The position numbers and the translations under genes were made by a program. Below the pieces are notes generated by a model. That model was not told where the DNA came from, did not search any database, and was given only the letters and a program-made list of their open reading frames with translations. Positions 10,086 to 47,063 of a DNA stretch of 47,688 nt are shown here, in pieces. The DNA is taken from contig JBIIRM010000008.1 in NCBI GenBank assembly GCA_044341565.1, forward strand, positions 1 through 47,688, given 5' to 3'. Source of the DNA: Minisyncoccia bacterium. GTDB lineage: Bacteria > Patescibacteriota > Minisyncoccia > SW-4-49-11. Position 1 is the first letter of the stretch, and every line of letters starts with the position of its first letter.

Positions 10086-10416
10086 TATCCAAGGAGAATG
10101 GTAATCGCGCATATCCATATATATGGTGAGTGAGGAAAGTCTGGACACCTATTACTTTGTAATAAATGATAGTGGGTAATACCCACCATTGAGCTTGCTC
10201 AATCGGGATAGTATCGCAGAAACAAGACATTTGAGTATATCTCATCTAAGGTGAAAAGAGATAAACCCTATCAGGTGCAAGGCCGTGCTTTTCTGTATTG
10301 AAAAGAGTGCCGCCAAGAATATGCTGGTAACAGTATATCAAGATAAATGATTACCTATGTATATTTGCTTGCAAGTATGCATAACAGAATCCAGCTTATA
10401 TTCTTCTTGGATAATT
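10086..10416 (+). ncRNA. rnpB: RNase P RNA (bacterial type A-like)
   Basis: Conserved CR-I-like GAGGAAAGTCTGGAC at 10132-10146 and CR-V-like ACAGAATCCAGCTTAT at 10384-10399. Internal GGGTAATACCCACC and AGATAAATGATTACC resemble universal rnpB elements. The P1 helix forms between TATCCAAGGAGAAT (10086-10099) and ATTCTTCTTGGATA (10400-10413) with one G-U pair. A TATAAT at 10074-10079 puts a transcription start near 10086. Confidence 0.85.
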
Positions 10417-11911: not shown

Positions 11912-14900
11912 ATGGGAGAATCATTTAGACAAATACCCGAAGATTATAGAGAGCCTAATGAACATGATAGAGGTTTAGAAAATGGTCAAGGACTTATAGA
12001 ATTTGTTTCTGCTTCAGTCAAAAAAAGGAATAGATTTAATAAGGAATTAGGGCCAGTCATTGGTATTACGGACACAGATAATTTGGCTAAATTAAGACGT
12101 AAACTTCAAGAAGAATTGACAATCCCACAGTTAAATGGTAATACATTAGATTTAGAAACAGTAAATTTTTTACGTAATCGTTATGGTTTTGATGCTTTAG
12201 GACAAGAAGAATATGAGGTACAGCAAAGCCAGACACAGGAAGTTGAAAATAGTGTTGAACAGTTAGCTCCAGAAGAAAAAATTAGTCTTAACTCCCTAAA
12301 TTCAGAACAAACTCAAATAGTAGAAGAGGAAACAGGAATAACTCCTGAAATACCAGCTGAGCAAGAATTGGTATCAGAAGTATTGTCACCCATACAGGAC
12401 CAACAAGATCAAATTACCCCTATTGCGGAAGAATCAATTCTTCAAAATCCTGAGCAAGTTGCTCCAAAAGAAGAATTGACTTCTGAAAATCCAGATGTAC
12501 AGGGAATGTTGGCTGAGGTCACAGCTATTGTAGAGGCGGAACAACAGGAGGAAGAAAAATTAGATGTACCTGAAGGAGGAGAAAATAAAGGAGAAGAGAC
12601 TGAAAGATTAACACAAGAAGCTCGTGAAACTATTGCTATATATCAAAAATTTGGACAAGAGCATCCTATTTTTACAAGAGATCAGGCAACGCAAGAGCGA
12701 TATCGTCAATTAGAAGCTGAAGCTTGGGGAGCTCAGAATAGACTTGCTCATATGAATGGGGGAGAAATTTTTGCTTTACCACAAAAAAGAGATATAGAAT
12801 TATCACATCCAGAAGCAAAAGACACAAAAGACTATCTGGAATCATTAGAATATGGATTTGATGAGAAGGGTAATATTATTACCATTAAACATCATAATAA
12901 AAATATAGAATTGAATCGACCTTATAGTGTGGCAAATTTGATAGATAAAGCTCGACCAGCACAAATACTTACTGATATTAATTTAGATAATATCGATACA
13001 GATCTACATCGTATAGGATATGTATTACCGGGTTTGAATCCCCAAACCCCAGACTTTATTGTGAGTACACTCAGCAAAGATGAATTTATACAAGGAGTGA
13101 TTGTTGATGATATTGTTCCCGAACAAGTAGTAACACCTGAAGCTAATCCAGAGATACAAGCTTCTAGTGTTTTATTTCCGCCCGAGCCAACGGCAGAACA
13201 ATTACCAATCACCCCAGTACCAGAAGTTAATCTTGAAGTAGAAAACTCTACGCTTGAAGTTGTGATAAGTCCAGAAATAGAACAAGCACCAATAAATCCA
13301 GATTTGGGAAGTTTATATTATCAAGAAATTCAATTATGGAATAATATTCAAGCATTAAAAGAGCGAAGAGAGCAAAAAGAAGCTAAAGAAGAAGATATTG
13401 ATACACAAATTGAAAAAGCCGAGTCAGATTATCAAAGTTTTATAAACACATTATGGGGAAGTGAATTGGGAAGACGTTTTGTCCAATTTCTTGATTTGCG
13501 TACAGAGAGTGCATATACTGAAGAGCAAAATAATAAATATGGTAGAGATAAAGGTTTATTAGAGAAAATTCGTGATAAATTCTCAAGAGAAGATGTATCA
13601 GATACAGAAGAATTAAGTCCTAAAGATCAGGAACTTAAGGCTAGAAATGAATATAATCAAGCTTTACAAGAATTAATTAGAACTGAATCAGCTATTGGAT
13701 TAGAATCAGAAATACAAACATTATTTGCAACTGAAGTACAGCGTTTGCGAGATGAAAGAATAGTACAATCTCAGGAATTACAAGAATGGGATCAAACAGG
13801 ACTTGAAAAAATAGCTAATTCAACTAAAGAAAAACTATTCAACTGGTATATTAAACATAAAAATACTATTGGTAAAGTTAATCTTGCATTATTTGCAACA
13901 AGTACAACACTAGCATTAACTGGAGCTGGACTACCTGTAGCAGGAGCATTAGAGGCTGTAAGGCGTACAATAGCATATCCTATGGCTTTTGCTTCTGGAG
14001 TATCAAGTAGAGAACTTATAAGGTCAAAATTTGAAGATGGGGATGTTAATATACTTAATATTATTAAATATAAAGGGGGAATTACTAAACTAGTAGGGGA
14101 GTCTCTACAAGGAAATTATATTCAGGAAGCTCAAGATACTGAACTTACTGCAAAACTTAGTACCCTGGAGTCTTATTATCGGCTTAATGGAGGTAAATTT
14201 ACTGAATTGTCTCAGCAAAAAGCTTATGAGTTGATATTAACTGAATTAGGGCAGAGAGTAGAAAATCAAAAAATTGATGATGTTAAACCAGATATAGAGC
14301 AACCTGAAGAGCAAGAGACTACAGCTAACACAGGATTAGATTATAATATTAATTTAAAAGATAATCCTATAGAACAAAATCCAAACTATGTTAATAGCTT
14401 ATTAGAGACAGTATCAGAAAAGCGTATTACAGAATTACAAAGACTACAAAGGAATAGAACTATTGCAAATGTAGCAGGAACAGTTGTAGCGGGATCACTA
14501 TTAGTCAATTTAGCGGCACATGCTATTAAACTTGATAAACCAGATATTGCAGATACTCCTGATAATCTGTCTGTTGGGACAAGTCCAGAGACTGCTACTC
14601 CAAATCCTACAGAAATATCTCCAGTTAAACCTGATATTCCATCTTCAGAAGGAGCTGAATCTATGAATGAGGTTGCAAAAGAAGCTACTCAGCAATTATC
14701 AACAGAACAATTACAAGATATCTCTGAATTAAGTAAGGGAGAGACTTTATGGGGAGAAATAGCTAAAAAATTAGGAGCGAATGCCAGTGAAGCCCAAATT
14801 CAACAAGGAGTAGAAACATATATGCAATCAACACAAGGTTCAGAAACTATATTTAATTTAGCAAATCAAACTGAGGGGGGAAGAGCTTTATTATCTCAAT

Positions 14901-15859
14901 GGGGGATTGATAATGCAGGAGAACTATCACAAGTATCAAAAACAGATTTATATGAATTATCTCGTCATCTAGGAGTAGGACAATTAAAGGGGTTAGATAC
15001 ATTAGATATTACTAATCTCCCTCCTCTTGATGAGGTATCAACTCCTACAGGATTAACTCCTCCTGAAAGTCCTAGTTCTGGAGTAACTCCTCCTGGACCT
15101 GGAGCCGAGTCTATTCCTCCAACTGATACTAATACTTTTGCTCGAGAAGTATCTCATACATTGCGTTTAGAGAATACCTCTCTCGATGATAATCAAGTTA
15201 AAGATATTTTGGAAGCATATCATTCCACTGAGCAGGGACGTAATTCTATGTATGAATTAATATTATCCGCTCCTGAAGGAGATACCTATTTATCTAATTT
15301 AGGTATTAAGACTATAGAAGATTTTTCAAATCTATCAGAGGATCAATTATATGAGCTTTCCCAGAGTATTGATTTAAACAAGCTTGAAGGATTTAATTTC
15401 AATAATATTATCTTATCTCGATTTGAAGATGCTCCAAACTCCATTCCATTGATAAAAGGAACCGGAGCTTTATCCCAAGTAAACCAGTATATTGATTTGT
15501 ATGCGGGAGCATTGCCATATAATTCTACTTTGGGACAAGAAGTATTAACTACATATTTGAATACCCCAGAAGGAAAAGATTGGCTATATGATGCTATTGT
15601 AAATAATCCAGATACATTAAATGGAAATCAAGGTATTCAAATTGCAAAAGAATATTTCCGACAAAAGGGTATACAACAGGGAACAGATATTGATTGGACA
15701 CTCTTAAGTGGAGATAAAAAAAATCCCACCTCAATTTTCTGGAGAGAGACCTCTTTGACAGGAGGAAGAAAAATCCCACCATTATCTACTCTTTTGAAAC
15801 CAGGTACAATGCCAGGTATCAAGAAAGCACTTGAGCAAGTATTAACATTAAAACAATAA
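11912..15859 (+). CDS. giant (1315 aa) hypothetical membrane protein: acidic Glu/Gln-rich N-terminal half, central TM segments, C-terminal triple repeat of about 90 aa
   Basis: Uninterrupted 3.9-kb ORF. TM-like stretches are VNLALFATSTTLALTGAGLPVAGAL and IANVAGTVVAGSLLVNLAAHAI. Repeats sit at about 14741-15010, 15131-15400 and 15520-15680 (shared pattern Q[IV]...Y..[ST].QG....[FY].L....EG...LS..GI....S..S...LYELS). I recognise no family. Confidence 0.8.
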   Translation: MGESFRQIPEDYREPNEHDRGLENGQGLIEFVSASVKKRNRFNKELGPVIGITDTDNLAKLRRKLQEELTIPQLNGNTLDLETVNFLRNRYGFDALGQEEYEVQQSQTQEVENSVEQLAPEEKISLNSLNSEQTQIVEEETGITPEIPAEQELVSEVLSPIQDQQDQITPIAEESILQNPEQVAPKEELTSENPDVQGMLAEVTAIVEAEQQEEEKLDVPEGGENKGEETERLTQEARETIAIYQKFGQEHPIFTRDQATQERYRQLEAEAWGAQNRLAHMNGGEIFALPQKRDIELSHPEAKDTKDYLESLEYGFDEKGNIITIKHHNKNIELNRPYSVANLIDKARPAQILTDINLDNIDTDLHRIGYVLPGLNPQTPDFIVSTLSKDEFIQGVIVDDIVPEQVVTPEANPEIQASSVLFPPEPTAEQLPITPVPEVNLEVENSTLEVVISPEIEQAPINPDLGSLYYQEIQLWNNIQALKERREQKEAKEEDIDTQIEKAESDYQSFINTLWGSELGRRFVQFLDLRTESAYTEEQNNKYGRDKGLLEKIRDKFSREDVSDTEELSPKDQELKARNEYNQALQELIRTESAIGLESEIQTLFATEVQRLRDERIVQSQELQEWDQTGLEKIANSTKEKLFNWYIKHKNTIGKVNLALFATSTTLALTGAGLPVAGALEAVRRTIAYPMAFASGVSSRELIRSKFEDGDVNILNIIKYKGGITKLVGESLQGNYIQEAQDTELTAKLSTLESYYRLNGGKFTELSQQKAYELILTELGQRVENQKIDDVKPDIEQPEEQETTANTGLDYNINLKDNPIEQNPNYVNSLLETVSEKRITELQRLQRNRTIANVAGTVVAGSLLVNLAAHAIKLDKPDIADTPDNLSVGTSPETATPNPTEISPVKPDIPSSEGAESMNEVAKEATQQLSTEQLQDISELSKGETLWGEIAKKLGANASEAQIQQGVETYMQSTQGSETIFNLANQTEGGRALLSQWGIDNAGELSQVSKTDLYELSRHLGVGQLKGLDTLDITNLPPLDEVSTPTGLTPPESPSSGVTPPGPGAESIPPTDTNTFAREVSHTLRLENTSLDDNQVKDILEAYHSTEQGRNSMYELILSAPEGDTYLSNLGIKTIEDFSNLSEDQLYELSQSIDLNKLEGFNFNNIILSRFEDAPNSIPLIKGTGALSQVNQYIDLYAGALPYNSTLGQEVLTTYLNTPEGKDWLYDAIVNNPDTLNGNQGIQIAKEYFRQKGIQQGTDIDWTLLSGDKKNPTSIFWRETSLTGGRKIPPLSTLLKPGTMPGIKKALEQVLTLKQ

Positions 15860-29459: not shown

Positions 29460-29488
29460 TTGACGATTTATAGGAATAACTATATACT
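29460..29488 (+). promoter_or_regulatory. candidate sigma70-type promoter for the methyltransferase/SBP/pilin gene string
   Basis: TTGACG (29460-29465), a 17-nt spacer, then TATACT (29483-29488), 29 nt upstream of ATG 29517. Confidence 0.4.
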
Positions 29489-29516
29489 AGATACAGGTAT
29501 AAAATAAAATCTCATT

Positions 29517-30059
29517 ATGTTAGAAACCACTACTCGATTTCTATCACCTCGTGAAATAGTACAGCAATTTGATTTAGAAGTTGGTATGAAAATTGCTGAT
29601 TTTGGATCAGGGGCAGGAGATTTTTCTATTGCCATTGCTCAATATATTCAGCCTACAGGGAAAGTCTTTGCAATTGATGTGATGGAATCAGCTCATCAAT
29701 CTCTTAGAAGTAAATATAAAATTCAAGGAATTACGAATATTGAACTGATTTTGACTAATCTAGAGACTGAAACAGGTTCTACTTTACCAAAAGAATCAGT
29801 AGATAGAGTAATGATACATAATATTTTATTTCAAGTAAATGATAAAAAACATTTGCTCAAAGAAGCTCATAAAATCTTAAAAGATAAAGGAAAATTAGTT
29901 GTAATAGAATGGGATATTTCAAGTCCAATAGGACCTCTTAAATCATCAAGAATTCCAGAGAGAGAATTAGTGTCCCTGATACAGAATAATGGTTTTGAAA
30001 TTGATCATAAAATTGACTCAGGAAAATACCATTATGGATATATATTTAATAAATCATAA
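29517..30059 (+). CDS. class I SAM-dependent methyltransferase
   Basis: Motif I IADFGSGAGDFSIAIA, then VFAIDV, and a post-II region HNILFQV. Confidence 0.8.
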   Translation: MLETTTRFLSPREIVQQFDLEVGMKIADFGSGAGDFSIAIAQYIQPTGKVFAIDVMESAHQSLRSKYKIQGITNIELILTNLETETGSTLPKESVDRVMIHNILFQVNDKKHLLKEAHKILKDKGKLVVIEWDISSPIGPLKSSRIPERELVSLIQNNGFEIDHKIDSGKYHYGYIFNKS

Positions 30060-30061
30060 AT

Positions 30062-31408
30062 ATGGCAGGGAATAATTCTCTTGATTCATTTACCAAAAAT
30101 CGCAACGTAATTATTATTGCTGGTGTCGCTATATTAGCTATTGTTATATTGATGCTTGGTAATGCGCTTGGATTCAAAATTGGAGGTGAGAAAAAAGTAC
30201 AAAAAGCAAATTTGGTAGTATGGGGAGTCTGGGATGAAAGTGAGACAATGACGAAATTGGGAAGTGATTTTCGTAAAATATATCCTAATGTAAGTATAGA
30301 ATATCGTAAATTCAAGCCACAAGATTATGAGACAGAACTTATTAATGCTTTAGCTGAGGGACGAGGTCCAGATATATTGGCAATGGAGAGAACTTGGCTT
30401 GGTAAACATAAGAATAAGTTAGCCCCAATGCCAGAAGAAATTATGACACTCAAAGAGTATCAAGATACTTTTGTAGATGTGGTTAATCAAGATTTTATTG
30501 ATGAGGGTAAAATATATGGATTCTCTCTATACACCGATACTTTAGCATTATTATATAACAAAGATGCTTTTAATGATGCTGGAATTGCAAATCCACCAGT
30601 AACTTGGGAAGAATTACAAAGTATAGTACCCAAATTAACTAAAATAGATCAATTTGGTGAGATTAAACAGGCGGGAGTTGCATTAGGTACAGGAGATAAT
30701 ATAAATCGTTCACCAGATGTTTTGATGGCATTAATGTTACAGTCTGGAGCTCAATTTACTGACCCTAAAGATACTAGTAGAATTACTTTTTCTCAAAGTA
30801 AAAATGTCAATGGACAAAATATAAATCCTGCTCAATTATCTTTAGCTTATTATACCGATTTTGCTAATCCTCGAAAAGGAGTATATACCTGGAATTCAAC
30901 CTTAAATAATTCAATAGATGCTTTTTATGAAAGAGAAGTTGCTATGATATTTGGATATTCATATCAGGTAGAAGCAATTAAAGCAAAAGCCCCAAGACTT
31001 AATTTTGCAGTAGCTCCTCTCCCTCAGGTATCTACAGATTCTGGCCTTGCTAATTTTGCAAATTATTGGGGATATGGAGTAAGTGGTCAATCTAAATACC
31101 CAAAAGAAGCCTTTGCATTCCTCAAATCAGCCACTGAAAAGGAAAATGCTCAAGAGTATTTCTTGAAAACCAAGCGCCCAACAGCCAGAAGAGATTTAGT
31201 AGATACACAATCACAAGACATTGATTATGGAGTATTTGTAAAACAAATATTACAAGCTAAAACCTGGAGACAACCCGATAATAATTCAGTAGATAAAATA
31301 TTTATCAATGCTATTAATGGAGTAAATTCAGGATTACTTGACTATAGTAAAGCTATTTCGCAAGCTCAAACAGAAATACAGACATTAGCTGATAATGTGA
31401 AAAAATGA
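30062..31408 (+). CDS. ABC-transporter-type extracellular solute-binding protein (family 1, sugar-like), N-terminally membrane-anchored
   Basis: TM anchor VIIIAGVAILAIVILML, then VVWGVWDESE...YPNVSIEYRKFKPQDYETELINALAEGRGPDILAM...YNKDAF, typical of SBP_bac_1. No permease or ATPase gene is adjacent. Confidence 0.8.
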   Translation: MAGNNSLDSFTKNRNVIIIAGVAILAIVILMLGNALGFKIGGEKKVQKANLVVWGVWDESETMTKLGSDFRKIYPNVSIEYRKFKPQDYETELINALAEGRGPDILAMERTWLGKHKNKLAPMPEEIMTLKEYQDTFVDVVNQDFIDEGKIYGFSLYTDTLALLYNKDAFNDAGIANPPVTWEELQSIVPKLTKIDQFGEIKQAGVALGTGDNINRSPDVLMALMLQSGAQFTDPKDTSRITFSQSKNVNGQNINPAQLSLAYYTDFANPRKGVYTWNSTLNNSIDAFYEREVAMIFGYSYQVEAIKAKAPRLNFAVAPLPQVSTDSGLANFANYWGYGVSGQSKYPKEAFAFLKSATEKENAQEYFLKTKRPTARRDLVDTQSQDIDYGVFVKQILQAKTWRQPDNNSVDKIFINAINGVNSGLLDYSKAISQAQTEIQTLADNVKK

Positions 31409-32730
31409 AATATATAAAGTTCAGTATAGTTTTTGGTATAATATTCTTAGTAGTTTCATTTTTTAGTATTAACTATACTAATGCACAGAGTGCAGATGGA
31501 GCTTGTAGTGCAGGGGCAACATCATTAGAGCAAAACTGTACTTTTCAAAATGGAAGCTCTCGTTTAAATGGAAAATGCCAGGTTAAAGATAAAAATAATC
31601 CAGGTTTAGGATTAACTTGTCGTACTAGCTTAGGATCATCCTGCTCAGGTGATACTTGTCAAAATGGATTAGCCTGTATTAATCAGGTTTGTTCCAGTCC
31701 AAGAGGGGCTAAAACTCAAGGTCAATCTTGTTCAGGGAATGGAAATGAATGTATTGCAGGTCTTGAATGTAGAAATTTTATATGTACAAAAGAAGCTGCC
31801 ATTACTGGTGGAGGGTCTGGGCAAACTGGAGGTGGTCAAGTCGGTACCCCTGGAGGCTCAACAGGGGCAGAAACAGGCCTTGTTAAATGTGGAGTGAGTC
31901 GAGATTGTACTATTTGTGATATATTTATCTTAATTCGAGATATCTTTAATTTTGCTTTAGGGCTACTAGCCTCACTCGCGGTATTAAGTGTTGTTATTGG
32001 TGGGGTCTATGTGTTGACTTCAGCAGGTAATCCTGGAGCGGTAAGTACAGGATATGGCATTATTACCAATGCAGTAATTGGACTATTACTCGTAATGGCA
32101 AGCTTTCTCTTATTTAGTTTCCTTCTTGTGGGGCTTGGATTTCAAGAACAAAATTTCTCAGCTGTACTTACTTTTCAACCAGGTAAAGTATTCGAGGTAA
32201 AATGTGATAATGCTAGTACTTTTAATGATAATGGATCAAATGGAGGAGGGTCTGCTGTACTGGGTAATGGTGGGAGTAACTCATCAACTATAAGTTGTGC
32301 GAGTTTAAATGATTCGGTTAAGGCGGATTTAAATAATGCTAGTTCTCAGACGGGTGTTCCTTCTGAACTATTGGCTGGAATTATGCAAAGAGAATGTCCT
32401 GCAGCCTTTAATAATGCTAATGCTTGTCCAAATGAAAATGGCTCTGGAGCAGCTGGAGCAGGTCAATTTTTACAAAGTAGCTGGAATGAGCTGGGATGTA
32501 GTGGAAGTAGAACGAATCGAAGAGATGCCCTTGTTTGTATGGGGAAACATTTAAAACGGTATAATAAATGTTCTAGTCAATGTAATGGATATTCTAATTT
32601 TTCATCCAGAGCTTGTTCTGATTGTGTGGCAGGAGATTATTGTGGTGCATGTTCAGGTTCATCAGCTTGTGGAGGTAATTATTGTGATGGGGTGTGGAGT
32701 AACTATCAAAAATTTAAAACATGTAAATAA
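31405..32730 (+). CDS. secreted Cys-rich domain, T4SS-pilin-like TM hairpin and C-terminal Cys-rich lytic-transglycosylase-like domain (fusion)
   Basis: Signal peptide MKYIKFSIVFGIIFLVVSFFSINYTNA. Cys-rich repeats follow the pattern C.G..C..GL.C.N..C. The pilin core is FNFALGLLASLAVLSVVIGGVYVLTSAGNPGAVSTGYGIITNAVIGLLLVMASFLLF (about 31897-32155). The SLT-like motifs are ELLAGIMQRECP...GAAGAGQFLQSSW (about 32302-32730). The ATG overlaps the SBP stop (ATGA). Confidence 0.7.
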   Translation: MKYIKFSIVFGIIFLVVSFFSINYTNAQSADGACSAGATSLEQNCTFQNGSSRLNGKCQVKDKNNPGLGLTCRTSLGSSCSGDTCQNGLACINQVCSSPRGAKTQGQSCSGNGNECIAGLECRNFICTKEAAITGGGSGQTGGGQVGTPGGSTGAETGLVKCGVSRDCTICDIFILIRDIFNFALGLLASLAVLSVVIGGVYVLTSAGNPGAVSTGYGIITNAVIGLLLVMASFLLFSFLLVGLGFQEQNFSAVLTFQPGKVFEVKCDNASTFNDNGSNGGGSAVLGNGGSNSSTISCASLNDSVKADLNNASSQTGVPSELLAGIMQRECPAAFNNANACPNENGSGAAGAGQFLQSSWNELGCSGSRTNRRDALVCMGKHLKRYNKCSSQCNGYSNFSSRACSDCVAGDYCGACSGSSACGGNYCDGVWSNYQKFKTCK

Positions 32731-32734
32731 TAAT

Positions 32735-33841
32735 ATGAATAAAATCTTCAGTCTATTTTTACTAATAGCATCTTTCTATTCTATTTCTCCAGTATATGCA
32801 GATACTAGTATATACTCAAGTTTCTTATATCCAAGTTTTGCTGTAAATAATGAAATTTTATATTTTGATCAATATGCAGGAGCTATTGTGAAACAAAATG
32901 TTATTACTGGTGAGAAGTCAGAGATATTTGATTTAATACCTTCTGCTACTAACTTAGTATCAATTTCTCCTGAACAATCTAAAATATTACTTTATCCTCC
33001 TAATATATCATTTCCAAAATATCAAGCACCATTTTTTGATAGTTCAAGAAAATCTCCCGATAATCAATGGTGGGTATATGATTTTAATACAACAAATAAA
33101 ATACTACTAGATGATAAAATTAATTTAGTTGGCTGGTATTCTGATAATGAAATTATATATGTATTTAATAATAAAGATATCACAGTTGCCCCAACCAATG
33201 ACCTATCTAAATTTAATATTCTATACTCTAATATACCATCTAATGTGGATATTAATAAACAAATTATAGCAAATGATAACCATCAAATAATTCCATTAGT
33301 TGATGGTTATCTTGTGGGAAATAAGAAAAACTTTGTATATCAAAAAAGTACTAATTATCAAATTTCAGCCAATCCAAAATTGAATTATTTTTTGGAATAT
33401 AATAATAGTCAGATAAAAGTTTTTGATTGGGATAGTAAGCAAGTAGGTAGTATTATTAATATCAGTAACAGGAAAGCTTTGTTACTGAATAATGATACTA
33501 TAGCTATATTGGCTACAAATGGTAATTTGATACAATATAATTTACAAGGGCAGGAGCAATCAAATGTATCATTAAATCCAATAGTTACTGATATATATTC
33601 GGTTGATCAATCTGGAAATGAACTATTAATTAATCAAAATAATCAAATACGTACTTATAATTTATTAAAAAAAGAGCAGGGAACCATCCTATTATCCACC
33701 AATACTCCTACTCCTAATACTGACACAAATTCAGAGACAGAACAATCCAACACATTAGGGAATATTGCTATTTTAATAGGAGGAATAGTATTCCTTGCTG
33801 GGGGACTGGGGCTATTTATTTGGAAATTAAGAAAAAGATGA
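32735..33841 (+). CDS. secreted beta-propeller-like protein with a C-terminal TM anchor
   Basis: The true start ATG 32735 gives the signal peptide MNKIFSLFLLIASFYSISPVYA. The body is Asn/Ile-rich and beta-strand-like with PD40/TolB-like strings (ISPEQSKILLY, WWVYDFNT). The C-terminal anchor is IAILIGGIVFLAGGLGLFIWKLRKR. Confidence 0.6.
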   Translation: MNKIFSLFLLIASFYSISPVYADTSIYSSFLYPSFAVNNEILYFDQYAGAIVKQNVITGEKSEIFDLIPSATNLVSISPEQSKILLYPPNISFPKYQAPFFDSSRKSPDNQWWVYDFNTTNKILLDDKINLVGWYSDNEIIYVFNNKDITVAPTNDLSKFNILYSNIPSNVDINKQIIANDNHQIIPLVDGYLVGNKKNFVYQKSTNYQISANPKLNYFLEYNNSQIKVFDWDSKQVGSIINISNRKALLLNNDTIAILATNGNLIQYNLQGQEQSNVSLNPIVTDIYSVDQSGNELLINQNNQIRTYNLLKKEQGTILLSTNTPTPNTDTNSETEQSNTLGNIAILIGGIVFLAGGLGLFIWKLRKR

Positions 33842-33871
33842 TATAATTAAAAATAATTAAATACAGATACT

Positions 33872-34711
33872 ATGAAATTAATCATATCTACAGCATTTGG
33901 AATTGTCTTTGCACTAGTATTCTTTAGTAATTCTAATATAACACTTGCTCAATGTGGAAGTGGTCCAAGCTGTACAGGGAATTTTGTTTGTGTGAACGCA
34001 GATGGTACTCCTAAATGTTTGCTAAATCAGGTTAGTAATAATGGTTTATGTGAGGGCGACTCTTCTGTGAAATGTTCAGCAAATCAAGCTTGTATTCAAA
34101 ATAATGCAACAGAAATTGTATGTGCCCCTTTAGCGGGATCATCAGCTAATACAAATTTACCAGGTTCTGGAAGTACAACAACTTGTCCAACCTGTAAATC
34201 TGGTGAAACATGTATTAAGAGTGCAGCAGGACCACTCGTATGTAGATCCGCCGCTACAAATTGTACTCCTGCTTGTACAACAGGTAAGGTGTGTGTTAAA
34301 GCAACGCCAACAGCAACTACTGGAACTTGTGTAGATAATGCGCCTACTCAAGCTGCTGGAGGAGCTGGTGGTAATGGTGCTGGAGGGAATGGATCTTCAG
34401 GAGGAAGTGGTGGTGGCTTATTAGAAGGTCTCAATGCTTTTGGTAGTGCAGATTCTGGACTTAATACAGAGGGAACTCTCATTGGGTTTATTTCTAATAT
34501 TATTCGTTGGATATTAGGACTTCTTGGAACTGTGTTCTTTGTAATCATAGTTTTACAAGGGTATCTTTATATGACATCTTCAGGAGATGCGAGTAAAACA
34601 GCAGCAGCTACGGGGGCTATTACTAATGCAGTAATAGGACTACTGATTATTATGGGAGCTTTCCTCATTACTAATTTTGTGACAAGTGGTTTGATTGCCG
34701 CTGGGTCTTAA
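33872..34711 (+). CDS. T4SS-pilin-like protein, paralogue 1, with a long Cys-rich N-terminal extension and Gly-rich linker
   Basis: Signal peptide MKLIISTAFGIVFALVFFSNSNITLA, then about 20 Cys in C..G..C-type repeats and the linker AGGAGGNGAGGNGSSGGSGGG. The pilin core is IIRWILGLLGTVFFVIIVLQGYLYMTSSGDASKTAAATGAITNAVIGLLIIMGAFLITNF. Confidence 0.8.
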   Translation: MKLIISTAFGIVFALVFFSNSNITLAQCGSGPSCTGNFVCVNADGTPKCLLNQVSNNGLCEGDSSVKCSANQACIQNNATEIVCAPLAGSSANTNLPGSGSTTTCPTCKSGETCIKSAAGPLVCRSAATNCTPACTTGKVCVKATPTATTGTCVDNAPTQAAGGAGGNGAGGNGSSGGSGGGLLEGLNAFGSADSGLNTEGTLIGFISNIIRWILGLLGTVFFVIIVLQGYLYMTSSGDASKTAAATGAITNAVIGLLIIMGAFLITNFVTSGLIAAGS

Positions 34712-34721
34712 TATCTTATAT

Positions 34722-35069
34722 ATGATAGAAGCATTTATATCCAATTTCATCATAGTAACAGCTAAAGCCCAGGAGACATCGCCTCCTCCTATATTAGCTA
34801 TACCTACAGGAACAGGAGTGGGGGAGCAAGGAGATCTGTTTACTTTTGTGTCAGCTATTGTGCAATGGGGATTGGGATTAATAGGGATAGTATTATTTGT
34901 ACTTATACTCTTTTCTGGATTCCAATATGCAACAGCAGGGGGCGACTCTAAAAAAACTGAAGAAGCTATTAGTAGAATTACTTCTGCAGTAATCGGAGTA
35001 TTCATTGTAGGGGTGGCTTTTATACTATCCAATGCAGTATTAGGATTTGTTTTTAGTCTAGGATCTTAA
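34722..35069 (+). CDS. T4SS-pilin-like protein (TrbC/VirB2-type two-TM hairpin), paralogue 2
   Basis: The core is IVQWGLGLIGIVLFVLILFSGFQYATAGGDSKKTEEAISRITSAVIGVFIVGVAFILSNAVLGFVF. The start is trimmed to ATG 34722, after the upstream stop at 34711. Confidence 0.8.
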   Translation: MIEAFISNFIIVTAKAQETSPPPILAIPTGTGVGEQGDLFTFVSAIVQWGLGLIGIVLFVLILFSGFQYATAGGDSKKTEEAISRITSAVIGVFIVGVAFILSNAVLGFVFSLGS

Positions 35070-35097
35070 TATACTGACTTATCCACAATAGTATCAC

Positions 35098-35126
35098 TTG
35101 CATAGTAATATAAGATATGATAGTAT
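35098..35126 (+). promoter_or_regulatory. candidate promoter for pilin paralogue 3
   Basis: TTGCAT (35098-35103), a 17-nt spacer, then TAGTAT (35121-35126) in the 100-bp A+T-rich spacer. Confidence 0.25.
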
Positions 35127-35169
35127 AAAAACATAGAACATATTATTCAATAATTATTAAGATATTCTT

Positions 35170-35553
35170 ATGAATACTTCCCAGATAAAATCAATAGCAA
35201 CAAGAGCATTATTACCTGTATTAGTATTAGCTCCTACTTTAGCTGGAGCTGCAACTCCCATAAAAGATACTAGAGTCATAGGTGAAATACCTCAAGTAGC
35301 TGGTACTAATCAATCTACTGACCTTGTGGCTACAGTACAAGTGGTTATTCAATGGGCATTAGGATTTATCGGAATTGTAATATTCATTATTTTCTTATTT
35401 GCAGGATTTGAATATGCAACAGCAGGAGGAGATGAAGGAAAAGCAAAAACTGCACAGTCTCGAATGATTAACGCGGTAATTGGACTTATTATTATATTCT
35501 TTGCCTTTGTAGCTTCAAATGCAATATTGTCATTCGTATTCCCAGGAAATTAA
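35170..35553 (+). CDS. T4SS-pilin-like protein, paralogue 3
   Basis: Signal-like N-terminus ...LVLAPTLAGAATP. The core is VIQWALGFIGIVIFIIFLFAGFEYATAGGDEGKAKTAQSRMINAVIGLIIIFFAFVASNAILSFVFP. Confidence 0.85.
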   Translation: MNTSQIKSIATRALLPVLVLAPTLAGAATPIKDTRVIGEIPQVAGTNQSTDLVATVQVVIQWALGFIGIVIFIIFLFAGFEYATAGGDEGKAKTAQSRMINAVIGLIIIFFAFVASNAILSFVFPGN

Positions 35554-35573
35554 TCAAATTGATAGATACTATG

Positions 35574-35610
35574 AAACAATAAAAAGGGATTATATCCCTT
35601 TTTATTGTTT
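35574..35610 (+). terminator. rho-independent terminator-like hairpin after pilin paralogue 3
   Basis: AAACAATAAAAAGGGAT-tat-ATCCCTTTTTATTGTTT is a 17-bp perfect stem whose 3' arm carries a T-run. Confidence 0.65.
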
Positions 35611-35697
35611 AGAGAATACATATTCAAATAGTATAATCTTCTTGTCAGATAATAGAATACTTGATATACTTGTAATATATAGAATAGTAAAATAGAT

Positions 35698-36114
35698 ATG
35701 AGAGTCTTATTGATTATAATAGCTTTATTGATGGGGGTATTTGTATTAAGTTCTAATATATCTCTAGCTCAAAGAGCCCCTGATGCCACTCTCCCTGGTC
35801 CAGGAACAATCCCAATTAATACCGGAATAGCTGAGGGACCAAGCTTGATAGAAACAGTGTCTATTATTATAAGGTGGATATTAGGATTTATTGGAATTAT
35901 AATATTTATTATATTCCTATATGCAGGATTTGAATATGCAACAGCAGGAGGGGATGAGAAGCAGGCTGAATCAGCTCAAAAAAGAATGGTAAATGCAATC
36001 ATAGGACTGATTATTATATTCTTTGCATTTGTATTGTCGAATGCAGTATTAAGCTTTGTATTTCCTCCAGACGATACAGTAGATGATCCTAATATGCCAT
36101 TAAATGTAAATTAG
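35698..36114 (+). CDS. T4SS-pilin-like protein, paralogue 4
   Basis: Signal peptide MRVLLIIIALLMGVFVLSSNISLA. The core is IIRWILGFIGIIIFIIFLYAGFEYATAGGDEKQAESAQKRMVNAIIGLIIIFFAFVLSNAVLSFVFP. Confidence 0.85.
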   Translation: MRVLLIIIALLMGVFVLSSNISLAQRAPDATLPGPGTIPINTGIAEGPSLIETVSIIIRWILGFIGIIIFIIFLYAGFEYATAGGDEKQAESAQKRMVNAIIGLIIIFFAFVLSNAVLSFVFPPDDTVDDPNMPLNVN

Positions 36115-36115
36115 T

Positions 36116-36556
36116 ATGAAATATCTATCAATAGTAATAATTGCAATAATGATACTAATGAGTAATCCTTTTATTAGCTTTGCAGGTACCCCATCAGGGG
36201 GAGGAACTACTCCAGCTACGGGTGGTACTCCATCAGGGGGAGGAACTACTCCAGCTACGGGTGGTACTCCCACAACCCCAACTGACAATACTTCTGCTCA
36301 AAGTGTAGGATTTGTGAATCCAATTCGATTTAATTCTATCCCTGAGCTTATAGCAGGTATTATCAATGCTCTCTTGGGTATACTCGGAGCTATTACTGTG
36401 GCAATATTAGTGATGTCAGGATTTAAATATATGACAGCTTCTAATCCAGGAGCAGTAGGGCAAGCTTTAGATGGTATTAGGAATGCAATTGTAGGACTTA
36501 TGATTATTATGGGGGCTTTTCTCATCACACAATATATTATATCTGCTTTGGTGTAA
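36116..36556 (+). CDS. T4SS-pilin-like protein, paralogue 5, with a tandem Thr/Pro/Gly repeat
   Basis: Signal-like MKYLSIVIIAIMILMSNPFISFA, then (GTPSGGGTTPATG)x2. The core is IINALLGILGAITVAILVMSGFKYMTASNPGAVGQALDGIRNAIVGLMIIMGAFLITQY. Confidence 0.85.
   Translation: MKYLSIVIIAIMILMSNPFISFAGTPSGGGTTPATGGTPSGGGTTPATGGTPTTPTDNTSAQSVGFVNPIRFNSIPELIAGIINALLGILGAITVAILVMSGFKYMTASNPGAVGQALDGIRNAIVGLMIIMGAFLITQYIISALV
36185..36262 (+). repeat. two tandem copies of a 39-bp coding repeat
   Basis: GGTACCCCATCAGGGGGAGGAACTACTCCAGCTACGGGT (36185-36223) is repeated at 36224-36262 with 2 substitutions. Each copy encodes GTPSGGGTTPATG, and a partial third unit (GTPTTPT) follows. Confidence 0.9.
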
Positions 36557-36574: not shown

Positions 36575-36598
36575 CACCCTGTACTTTCGTAAAGGGTG
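36575..36598. terminator. hairpin between convergent genes; the T-run is on the minus strand
   Basis: CACCCT(g)TAC-tttc-GTA(a)AGGGTG. On the minus strand it is followed by TTTTTCTTT, so it best fits the terminator of gene 36613-37323. Confidence 0.55.
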
Positions 36599-36612: not shown

Positions 36613-37323
36613 TCAGCGAGCTTGTATCACTGGGTATCCAGATTGCCCACCTGGCATCTTCTGGTAATATTCATAATCATTATTAACATCTGCTCCGATA
36701 TTAAATTTCCTTTTAATATCGGGAGTATATTGTTTACCAAATACTCCTAGGGATATTTTGATCCTTTTCCCAGAAAGTGATGAAGGTAAATCGTGGCATT
36801 TAGCGTAAGGCTCAATAACCCTCCAATTGTCACCAATGGTAACCTCTTGATTTATCCAGTGTTTCTCTGGATGGCCAGTCTGTTTGAAGCAGACCTTGAG
36901 AGGTCGTGCTGGGAGATCATACTCACCATCACGATTGATCACGATGGGAGTCATTTCCCCGGGGGGATTGAGTTGTGCCTGCCTTGCACTATGTATGCTC
37001 TGGTTGAAGTTAGCTGAGCAATAGTTCAAGAGGAGAATTACTCCAATCACAGTAGCAGCAAACCTGAGCTTGCTATTGAGTACCGCTGCAATTATAGTAA
37101 TGGCCATCAAAAAGAATATCTCACCATCAGAAATACTTCCTCCGATGAGAATCATTTTGGCCCCCAACCAAAGACCAGCCAAACTAATCAGTAAAACTGA
37201 CCAGTTCAGTCCGCGAGCTTTACTCCACAAATTCCCAGAACTTGCCGGAGATGGGGAGGAGTTTGTGGATGATGAGGTGTTTGAGCCTCTAGATCCACGG
37301 GACCCGTATTGACGATTTGTCAT
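36613..37323 (-). CDS. hypothetical membrane protein: Ser-rich N-terminus, 3 TM segments and a soluble domain of about 120 aa
   Basis: MTNRQYGSRGSRGSNTSSSTNSSPSPASS, then TM segments (WSVLLISLAGLWLGAKMILIGG, IFFLMAITIIAAVL, FAATVIGVILLLNY). It is visibly more G+C-rich than neighbouring genes. I recognise no family. Confidence 0.65.
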   Translation of the reverse strand: MTNRQYGSRGSRGSNTSSSTNSSPSPASSGNLWSKARGLNWSVLLISLAGLWLGAKMILIGGSISDGEIFFLMAITIIAAVLNSKLRFAATVIGVILLLNYCSANFNQSIHSARQAQLNPPGEMTPIVINRDGEYDLPARPLKVCFKQTGHPEKHWINQEVTIGDNWRVIEPYAKCHDLPSSLSGKRIKISLGVFGKQYTPDIKRKFNIGADVNNDYEYYQKMPGGQSGYPVIQAR

Positions 37324-37434: not shown

Positions 37435-38460
37435 TCAGTCTTTGGAAGCTTCGAGAGCTCCCAGGACTTGATTTGCTATATCTTGCCCTTTACCCCCTCC
37501 ATGGAAAATAACTTTGGCATTGGTACCAAGAGTTTTTTCCAAAATAGGATATTGGGCGAGTTTAGCAAAAAGCTGTTGCTCTGAGATATCAGAGCCCATT
37601 GCTCCAGCTTTAATTGCAGCTGTGAATCCTTTGGTTTCAGCCAATAGATTCTCATTCTGTTGCTTAATAACCAGACCACGGGCTGTCTCGCGATCGAGAT
37701 CAGCTTTTTGCTCAGCTTTTGCTATGGCAGATTTATTCTTGGCATCATTGACCTCGGACGGTAACTCTAAATCATCTATATTTATTGCAGATAGCTCAAT
37801 ACCAATATTATCTAGTTTCTTCAGAATGGTCTTACCAAGAGCAAGAGCTTCAATATCCTCTGTAGTATCCATACCCTTAATACGAGATCCATCTTGCTCC
37901 AGACCAAGAGCTTGAAGTAATTGATCAGGAGTCATTGTAGATATTTGAATATCCTGAACCTCTTTACCCGCAGCTATATGCTTGGAGTATTCTTGATAGG
38001 TATGTTGTTGCAGTACTAGACGAATATAAGGGTTCAAGATGCGTTCAGTTGCCTGACGTTCATCCTGATCCTCTGCATTATAGTGCAAGTTATAAACATG
38101 CTTTATTTTTTCCTGCAGAGTATTTCCTTTAATTTGAGCAATTACGCTAACTCTTGCTTCTAGAGTAACATCAGCCAATTCTAATTTGGCAAAGTCATCA
38201 GTACTAGGAGCATCAGATCTATCCTGAGGGGCTACTTTTCTAGGCCCGTCATGTCTAAAAAGATAGACAGGAAACTGGTTGGTTTCATACCATCCAGCTA
38301 ATTTTGATCCCGGTACAATCAGATGAGGTCCCGGAGTAGCAATTTTGGAAAGAATTCCACTCCCATTATGATTTGGACGGCTTCCTAACCATGAAATCAC
38401 ATGAACTTCATCATCAGGTACAATCCAGATAGGGGGGATAAAGAAAGAATCAAAGGCCAT
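37435..38460 (-). CDS. SPFH/Band-7 (prohibitin/flotillin-like) domain protein without an N-terminal TM segment
   Basis: IWIVPDDEVHVISWLG...GPHLIVPGSKL, then IGIELSAINIDDLELPSEVNDAKNKSAIAKAEQKADLDRETA, matches the SPFH core and the following Ala/Glu-rich helix. G+C is visibly higher than the surroundings. Confidence 0.7.
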   Translation of the reverse strand: MAFDSFFIPPIWIVPDDEVHVISWLGSRPNHNGSGILSKIATPGPHLIVPGSKLAGWYETNQFPVYLFRHDGPRKVAPQDRSDAPSTDDFAKLELADVTLEARVSVIAQIKGNTLQEKIKHVYNLHYNAEDQDERQATERILNPYIRLVLQQHTYQEYSKHIAAGKEVQDIQISTMTPDQLLQALGLEQDGSRIKGMDTTEDIEALALGKTILKKLDNIGIELSAINIDDLELPSEVNDAKNKSAIAKAEQKADLDRETARGLVIKQQNENLLAETKGFTAAIKAGAMGSDISEQQLFAKLAQYPILEKTLGTNAKVIFHGGGKGQDIANQVLGALEASKD

Positions 38461-46974: not shown

Positions 46975-47060
46975 GGAGAGTTCGCATAGTTGGTCTAGTG
47001 CGCACGCTTGGAAAGCGTGTATACCGCAAGGTATCAAGAGTTCGAATCTCTTACTCTCCG
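46975..47060 (+). tRNA. tRNA-Ser (anticodon GGA), class II with a long variable arm
   Basis: Acceptor GGAGAGT/ACTCTCC plus discriminator G. D-arm GCA/TGC with a GG loop. Anticodon stem CACGC/GCGTG with loop TTGGAAA. Variable arm ATACC-gcaa-GGTAT. T-arm AAGAG-TTCGAAT-CTCTT. No CCA is encoded. Confidence 0.93.
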
Positions 47061-47063
47061 CAA

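Follow-up and report, generated by a model that had tools for sequence, protein, structure and literature searches.

The stretch of DNA analysed here, hereafter the window, is a contig of 47,688 nucleotides from a Minisyncoccia bacterium (Patescibacteriota; JBIIRM010000008.1) and consists of low-GC (about 33-36%) chromosomal DNA rich in housekeeping genes. Its homologues place it among the ultra-small bacteria of the candidate phyla radiation (CPR), in lineages of the Parcubacteria/Paceibacteria type. On its forward strand it carries a cluster in which genes for a methyltransferase (MT) and a solute-binding protein (SBP) stand at the head of an array of pilin genes assigned to a family of the type IV secretion system (T4SS). 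A sigma-70-type promoter sequence (TTGACG-17-TATACT, 29460-29488) lies directly 3′ of the gyrA stop codon and is followed by the gene for a class I S-adenosylmethionine (SAM)-dependent MT (29517-30059, 180 aa) and, after a 2-nt gap, by that for a membrane-tethered family-1 SBP (30062-31408, 448 aa), both identified by Pfam. The next gene overlaps the stop codon of the SBP gene in an ATGA and encodes a composite pilin of 441 aa (31405-32730); a further 4 nt downstream a propeller-like surface protein of 368 aa, recognised by structure modelling, begins at an ATG that agrees with the N-termini of its homologues (32735-33841). Pilin 1 (33872-34711, 279 aa) follows after 30 nt, pilin 2 (34722-35069, 115 aa) after 10 nt, with a start that agrees with the call of a 115-aa gene in L088 (L-numbers denote related loci in species-representative genomes), and pilin 3 (35170-35553, 127 aa) after 100 nt. 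An intrinsic-terminator-like hairpin in an A-tract/T-tract arrangement (35574-35610) separates these genes from pilin 4 (35698-36114, 138 aa) and pilin 5 (36116-36556, 146 aa), the last gene of the array. Re-analysis of the open reading frames (ORFs) located the genes, their junctions, the promoter-like site and the hairpin terminator exactly where the original prediction, made from the sequence of the window, had placed them. That prediction had however counted four pilin genes and ended the array at 35610, neither of which was upheld: two pilin genes lie beyond the terminator, up to 36556, and the 441-aa protein and pilins 1 to 5 together make six.

Pilins 1 to 5 match the Pfam family PF18895 (T4SS_pilin, VirB2/TrbC-like) at 35.9-41.9 bits against a cut-off of 26.6 (E-values of 1.9e-9, 1.1e-10, 8.1e-9, 4.9e-10 and 5.9e-10, respectively), and the 441-aa protein falls marginally under that cut-off (26.3 bits, 7.7e-6). 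By hydropathy all six carry a Sec-type signal peptide followed by two hydrophobic helices, and a consensus derived from 313 such domains has a short polar loop, with the conserved peptide T-A-G-G-D/N-x-x-K, and near-invariant glycine positions. In pilin 1 a 16-cysteine ectodomain is inserted between signal peptide and VirB2-like hairpin; the hairpin of pilin 4 is 72% identical to that of pilin 3, and the N-terminal part of pilin 5 is Gly/Thr/Pro-rich, variable and not conserved in L088. Pilin 3 also matches nearly the full 80-position profile of NF045849 (8.6e-10, 38.2 bits, just under the cut-off of 40), which describes the pilin-like conjugal transfer protein Mbov_0395 of Mycoplasma integrative and conjugative elements (ICEs). 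By family match and predicted topology the six proteins are thus conjugation-type VirB2/TrbC-like T4SS pilins. The earlier assignment as pilins stands, whereas a reading as type IV pilins has to be rejected, since no N_methyl motif occurs in these pilin genes, all of which match PF18895. The sole N_methyl protein of the window is encoded far upstream (696-2771, 691 aa) and additionally has Laminin_G_3 and fn3 domains; judged by these domains it is a true adhesin of the type IV pilin-like kind and has no relation to the VirB2-like genes. In contrast to Mbov_0395, the present locus does not lie on a mobile element: an origin of the cluster from such an element or ICE was considered and rejected, as its housekeeping flanks and its synteny across species speak against it.

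An alignment search with the SBP recovered at least 555 relatives in species-representative genomes, of which the best 80 loci were kept; their six-frame ORFs were labelled with the proteins of the window and with a hidden Markov model of the pilin hairpin, and gene orders were counted in species-level genomes with enough flanking sequence. In 65 of 76 species the SBP has a PF18895 gene no more than 150 nt downstream, at a median gap of 5 nt, and the two genes share ATGA-type 4-base overlaps in 19 species. The MT lies directly 5′ of the SBP in 60 of 77 species and is itself preceded by gyrA in 44 of 59, and a median of five pilin genes is found downstream of the SBP. The near-universal order, all on one strand, is (metallo-beta-lactamase (MBL)-fold gene)-gyrA-MT-SBP-pilin (106-1200 aa)-(~230-aa gene)-pilins. 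The gene-neighbourhood check proposed for the supposed surface module therefore did not refute it, the order being kept in more than 60 species. A second arrangement without gyrA exists in L073, L076, L082 and L085 (for example L085:9968-16666), namely SMC-(ComM-like)-SBP-pilin-RodZ-like helix-turn-helix protein-MT-small membrane protein-six to seven pilins, where the upstream genes were identified by inspection of their N-terminal sequences; in these loci the MT moves together with the SBP-pilin pair. Five others (L027, L055, L062, L065 and L086) have different genes upstream and keep the pair, so that the adjacency of SBP and pilin outlasts a broken gyrA/MT linkage. Among 58 species the hairpin of the 441-aa protein finds its best match in the pilin at the first position in 36, the corresponding figure for pilins 2-4 being 3-4, which indicates that the SBP has a dedicated neighbouring pilin subtype.

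The SBP matches SBP_bac_1 (PF01547) over residues 59-363 (E = 1.7e-28), a family-1 match that extends across both lobes, and its top PDB profile matches are mostly sugar-binding proteins of ATP-binding cassette (ABC) transporters (E = 1e-26 to 1e-30); it stays under all NCBIfam equivalog cut-offs, and some sources label its homologues "multiple sugar transport system substrate-binding protein." It lacks cysteine and has a single N-terminal transmembrane segment (residues 15-33), replaced in the SBPs of L060, L077 and L081 by a lipobox-like signal. The membrane-anchored ABC-type SBP of the original prediction is thus borne out by family match and anchor. Between distant Paceibacteria-type lineages the protein remains 40-45% identical, and an alignment of 12 sequences contains 57 invariant residues, among them the aromatics W54, Y81, Y89, W112, Y152, W182, Y264, W277, Y335, W336 and W402, which have the look of a carbohydrate-binding cleft that has been preserved. 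In its pace of evolution the SBP is close to the MT and the pilin hairpins and far slower than the exposed heads described below, and of all parts of the cluster outside the cell it is the best conserved. Given this contrast with the heads, what it recognises is probably constant, be it a glycan-type ligand or the first pilin. Such conservation agrees better with a ligand or partner that is itself conserved than with an adhesin specific to a host, and this refines the adhesive role originally considered. The sole apparent fusion of an SBP with a pilin gene (L081, 617 aa) was discarded, as it arises from masked bases that were translated as X.

Genes for sugar SBPs of this class normally adjoin those for their permease. 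No ABC permease (PF00528) or ATPase (PF00005) was found by Pfam in the 47.7-kb window, nor in precomputed Pfam annotation within ±10 kb of the cluster in L002, L004, L006 and L088, in agreement with the earlier view that the SBP has no cognate transporter genes here. Likewise, Pfam detected none of the T4SS core genes VirB4, VirB6 and VirB3/PrgI in the window, and clustering and inspection, in place of Pfam, of the unlabelled ORFs of at least 450 aa from 87 loci revealed no VirB4/VirD4-like group. Large genes beside the arrays in L051, L020, L066 and L083 were considered as hidden T4SS or ABC parts and rejected, as they turned out to be glycosyltransferase, carbamoyltransferase, radical-SAM or fn3 genes or to have no Pfam match. 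In L051 (11602-19076) the SBP is followed by a carbamoyltransferase, two PMT_2-type glycosyltransferases and a radical-SAM/SPASM enzyme, without pilins. An SBP without permease genes among its listed neighbours also appears in the supplement on Southlakia epibionticum, where the essential family-5 peptide SBP SEML1_0634 is encoded beside secG (PMC10633639).

The first pilin of the window comprises a signal peptide, a Cys-rich ectodomain (residues ~30-170), the VirB2-like hairpin (~171-250) and a C-terminal SLT/GH23-like domain (251-441); it contains 30 cysteines altogether. A PDB search with the single protein gave nothing meaningful and a word-indexed search with the C-terminal domain a single match, but a profile built from close homologues yielded 15 PDB matches of which all 15 were MltC, MltB, EmtA or g-type lysozyme (best E = 0.011), in an alignment that covers the catalytic Glu and the GLMQ-type motif. 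An exhaustive HMMER search with the domain recovered 19 relatives; among the 16 that were scanned, eight carry PF18895, four match Pfam SLT (best 1e-17) and three match SLT_2, and the columns of the Glu and of the G-x-M-Q-F motif are near-invariant among the homologues. Foldseek matches of a model with a pLDDT of 52, too low for it to count as evidence, were non-significant, nearly all of them being GH23/lytic transglycosylase folds. Because of the PDB profile matches, the Pfam matches of the HMMER relatives and the near-invariant motif columns, we accept the domain as probably SLT/GH23-type with a putative catalytic Glu330, and its activity as putatively muramidase-like; the guess of a pilin-SLT fusion thereby gains the support of homologue profiles, family matches and motifs.

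The 368-aa protein between the first pilin and pilin 1 consists of a signal peptide, a beta-propeller-like head, a Thr/Pro/Asn linker and a C-terminal transmembrane anchor. Its AlphaFold2 model, made from a shallow alignment with four long homologues, is all-beta with ~27 strands (pLDDT 69, pTM 0.63), and Foldseek returned 1479 PDB matches at E ≤ 1e-3, with WD40 and designed propellers at the top (probability 1.0, TM-score 0.45-0.53). Model and matches agree with the propeller-like, C-terminally anchored protein that had been proposed, and we consider the head to be beta-propeller-like with moderate confidence in view of the shallow alignment. Homologues of ~227 aa have only linker and anchor in common with it, and it is through these that the ~230-aa gene found after the first pilin in ~30 loci is distantly related to the 368-aa protein.

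For the MT, Pfam gave Methyltransf_31/11/25 (E = 7e-16), no NCBIfam equivalog cut-off was reached, the top PDB matches (3dh0 and 3i9f) bear generic methyltransferase names only, and hydropathy revealed no hydrophobic segment. It is by these criteria a cytoplasmic class I SAM enzyme, as already assumed from the sequence. Co-inherited with the cluster, it may modify a ligand or that loop of the pilins which faces the cytoplasm.

In the cluster the conserved hairpins, SBP and MT contrast with highly variable heads. At 72% SBP identity the pilin hairpins are still ~80% identical, whereas the propeller head, the SLT domain and two N-domains, the Cys-rich one and that of pilin 1, are absent, have been replaced or are carried by another pilin, and even at 94% SBP identity one relative bears another head, of 227 aa, on the anchored protein. 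L003 and L002 have an identical SBP and share 99.8% DNA identity over 10.6 kb to just past the first pilin hairpin; there follows a segment of ~1.4 kb without homology, which takes in the propeller head and the C-terminal ectodomain in the first pilin (L003:10657-12068 versus L002:11939-12939), after which identity resumes at 81%. The window and L088 lose homology at the same domain boundaries (about 32250-33680, 34133-34410 and 36125-36300). Where strains that otherwise agree to 92-99.8% lose their homology, they do so sharply and at the limits of ectodomains, which suggests that ectodomains and propeller head are swapped as cassettes by recombination; surface structures that evolve under diversifying selection typically combine a constant scaffold with exposed heads that can be exchanged.

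Throughout the window the genes are generally spaced by 1-6 nt, so that tight packing by itself is no proof of an operon. The promoter sequence at 29460-29488 matches 10 of 12 positions, a score unremarkable alone in this AT-rich DNA, where 12 sites within 10 kb score at least 10/12. It is nevertheless kept as TTGAC[GT]-17 nt-TATA[CA]T in seven relatives whose SBPs are 94% to 69% identical, while the sequence of the spacer diverges. Folding of the 63-nt interval between gyrA and MT revealed no terminator-like hairpin (z = 0.06), and read-through from gyrA is accordingly possible. The hairpin at 35574-35610, which a simple terminator scan did not pick up, has a stem of 17 bp without mismatch (-19.9 kcal/mol, z = -4.6); at the equivalent position L002 and L010 fold a differing sequence into a hairpin followed by a T-run, and by position and differing sequence it looks conserved at the level of structure. 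A promoter had been suspected in the 100-nt spacer before pilin 3, and a conserved TTGCA[TA]-17-TAnnAT is indeed present (TTGCAT-17-TAGTAT, 35098-35126). A perfect DnaA-box 9-mer, TTATCCACA (35079-35087), precedes it by 10 nt; box and internal promoter are both kept in L088, L002, L010 and L008, the last of which has the box inverted. In either orientation TTATCCACA occurs 45-100 nt 5′ of a small pilin gene in seven related loci (L002:14469, L003:13099, L008:5373, L010:14429, L013:8103, L066:18597 and L078:7028), and seven of the 22 perfect DnaA boxes within 1.2 Mb of related loci fall in spacers of pilin arrays, for which reason DnaA or the cell cycle may be linked to pilin expression. Ahead of pilin 4 a motif scan found a further promoter-like site (TTGTCA-17-TATACT with TG, 35642-35670). 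Expression of the cluster is probably divided among two or more transcripts, nested or in series, and not carried by a single one: a first unit would run from the promoter at 29460 to the terminator at 35610, with the internal DnaA-box-associated promoter before pilin 3, and pilins 4-5 would form a second. All nine gene starts between 29490 and 36120 have A/T-rich leaders without Shine-Dalgarno-like sequence, and an Rfam scan of the cluster region gave no RNA family.

Downstream of the array a hairpin with z = -2.0 and its T-run on the minus strand (36575-36598) lies between pilin 5 and a convergent pair of minus-strand genes, encoding a highly variable 236-aa protein with three transmembrane segments and a Ser-rich N-terminus (36613-37323) and a Band_7/SPFH protein (37435-38460); the pair is kept only among closer relatives. 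Housekeeping genes of the window include ftsK, eno, recJ, RNase P RNA (class A, 140 bits, 10089-10414), fmt/def, priA, greA, metG, gatB and gyrA, and rpsL/rpsG/fusA, an AcrB-like pump and a tRNA-Ser(GGA) (46975-47061) are encoded as well. A 1315-aa ORF without Pfam match (11912-15859) is followed by a DUF5663 gene.

VirB2-like pilin arrays, which are widespread in Patescibacteria, and their essentiality in Southlakia have already been published (PMC10633639; PMC12102498; PMC12857230). The array described here resembles those of Southlakia epibionticum (SEML1_0014-0019) and of the survey by Quinonero-Coronel et al. (2025; PMC12102498) in Pfam family, chromosomal location and the tandem arrangement of 2-11 divergent paralogues, each with a signal peptide and a two-helix hairpin. 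In Southlakia, the sole Patescibacterium with genome-wide mutagenesis, T4SS-like machinery and pilin array are essential for epibiotic growth, and the array lies inside the T4SS locus, adjacent to PrgI family and VirB6-like genes and without SBP or methyltransferase (PMC10633639). The present array, in contrast, is detached from T4SS genes, has MT and SBP at its head and contains pilins fused to large ectodomains. An Hsp20 gene adjoins the Southlakia array (PMC10633639), and in L006 and L007, two Yanofskybacteria loci, one likewise occurs 3′ of the array. In most classes of Patescibacteria, Paceibacteria included, virB4 is found near dnaA/dnaN; few VirB1 homologues have been recovered from Patescibacteria, whose T4SS loci mostly lack relaxases (PMC12102498). 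The Southlakia locus is without recognisable coupling and relaxase proteins (PMC10633639), and a role other than DNA transfer has been proposed by the authors (PMC12102498; PMC10633639). With the VirB1-type lytic transglycosylases (SLT, GH23) the domain of the 441-aa protein shares the motif pattern of a Glu in ...IMQREC... followed by GAGQF..SSW; VirB1 is however a separate secreted enzyme, and the domain described here is Cys-rich, fused C-terminally to a pilin hairpin and present in some lineages only. The SBP has the family-1 sequence and conserved aromatics of carbohydrate SBPs of ABC importers (trehalose/maltose-binding 1eu8, Lin1841 5ysb, MalE), from which it differs by its coupling to a pilin gene and by having no permease or ATPase adjacent in the window and four relatives. 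A comparable SBP fold without its own permease in a Gram-positive-type conjugation system is the pheromone-binding PrgZ/TraC of enterococcal conjugative plasmids. These proteins however bind peptides, belong to family 5 and supply the Opp permease encoded on the chromosome, and the present SBP is of the family-1 carbohydrate type and has no known permease partner.

Neither the T4SS survey (PMC12102498) nor a review of T4SS nomenclature mentions solute- or substrate-binding proteins; in the survey gyrA is not mentioned either, and a methyltransferase only once, apparently the rRNA methyltransferase KsgA. Literature searches combining Patescibacteria, solute-binding protein and VirB2 found no paper, and a search on orphan SBPs in Parcubacteria nothing relevant. 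The coupling of MT, SBP and pilin conserved in many lineages thus appears to be new, as do the pilin subtype tied to first position, the fusion of a pilin with an SLT domain and the exchange of cassettes.

The cluster points to a hitherto undescribed cell-surface apparatus, which most likely serves in dealing with host cells. We give a probability of about 50% to the reading that the locus is the local copy of a surface-appendage cluster conserved in many Paceibacteria/Parcubacteria-type lineages, with pilins served by a T4SS and the SBP as a dedicated partner. The pilins would then be membrane-inserted subunits that are polymerised or displayed by a VirB4/VirB6-type T4SS encoded elsewhere, and both of their termini would face outward, by analogy with VirB2 and TraA, leaving the fused domains outside the cell, where the variable heads might contact a host or partner cell and locally open its envelope or wall. 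The SBP would serve as the dedicated ligand-binding partner of this apparatus and not as a canonical ABC-importer receptor, either capturing a conserved glycan- or muropeptide-type ligand or docking on the first pilin, and the MT would modify a component or ligand of the apparatus. A number of observations weigh against this proposal. To our knowledge no pilus has been demonstrated for any PF18895 protein, and with no T4SS core gene in the window or the related loci the link to a T4SS is by family membership only. The upstream synteny takes in housekeeping genes (gyrA and the MBL-fold protein), so that part of the conservation could be gene-order inertia in streamlined genomes, and by sequence the SBP belongs among the carbohydrate SBPs of ABC importers, for which a distant permease is possible. 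The SLT and propeller domains are lineage-specific accessories and not conserved parts of the cluster; moreover, the C-terminal 191 residues of the 441-aa protein alone give a sub-threshold SLT_2 match (E = 0.009), and the AlphaFold2 model of this domain, obtained from a 2-sequence alignment, is poor.

Alternatively, the SBP might be that of an ordinary ABC importer which delivers sugar to a MalFGK-type permease/ATPase encoded elsewhere, its adjacency to the pilins being inherited synteny without functional link. Membership in SBP_bac_1/SBP_bac_8, the predominance of ABC sugar-binding proteins among its PDB matches and the names given to its homologues would all agree with this, as would the extension of the conserved block up to gyrA and the MBL-fold gene and the genome-wide tight gaps. 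We nevertheless regard such an importer as unlikely, because the SBP-pilin adjacency is more persistent than that of gyrA and MT and outlives the rearrangements that remove gyrA, start/stop overlaps recur in so many species, the pilin next to the SBP is a distinct orthologous subtype and no permease or ATPase is found in the window or near the cluster in the four Pfam-annotated relatives. The coupling of translation to one specific pilin subtype could also mean that the SBP fold is an assembly factor, which would bind no small ligand and would serve the first pilin or the T4SS platform as a protein-binding scaffold or chaperone, in a role comparable to that of pilin chaperones or T4SS lipoproteins; the tethering of the SBP, by a transmembrane segment here and by lipobox-like signals elsewhere, and its rate of evolution, which is that of the hairpins and unlike that of the ectodomains, would suit this role. 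The many invariant aromatics, with their likeness to a carbohydrate-binding cleft, and the lack of any SBP-pilin fusion make it a rather improbable one.

The ~5-6 PF18895 hairpins per array, with two transmembrane segments each, might also form with the SBP an uptake channel or an import-mode T4SS or pilus, by which these auxotrophic cells would take up glycans of the host. That upwards of 60 species couple an orphan SBP to several small proteins of two transmembrane segments, with no permease nearby, would be in line with such a conduit, as are the scarcity of relaxases and the non-DNA-transfer role proposed for published Patescibacterial T4SS loci (PMC12102498; PMC10633639), and an SLT-type domain in the same operon could generate the ligands. 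The cluster has however no energising component, PF18895 proteins belong to bona fide Saccharibacteria T4SS loci without SBP, and the idea is purely inferential and without precedent, which makes it very unlikely in our view. Its most specific form, in which the SBP would capture glycan or muropeptide fragments and hand them to a pilin/T4SS conduit instead of an ABC permease, with pilin-borne muramidase domains releasing the fragments in some strains, is in our view likewise very unlikely. Finally, the conserved internal promoter before pilin 3, the conserved terminator before pilin 4 and the promoter-like sites in front of the latter might mean that there is not one functional unit at all but several independent transcription units that merely abut. 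Since the junctions from MT to pilin 2 overlap or nearly abut, and since the whole set is co-inherited across two gene orders, we think this most improbable.

The leads obtained here cover a very large and almost uncultured group, the Paceibacteria/Parcubacteria-type lineages, and the SBP provides a conserved soluble partner amenable to ligand screening. The pilin-fused SLT-type domain is a candidate for the missing VirB1 function and may help to explain why published searches found few VirB1 homologues, and a conserved scaffold with exchangeable heads is the pattern expected of determinants of host range or phage evasion. An SBP-coupled conduit, if true, would be a previously unknown route by which auxotrophic cells acquire host material, replacing the ABC permease; and if the SBP works with the pilins instead of a permease, the pili of secretion systems would be connected to nutrient capture.

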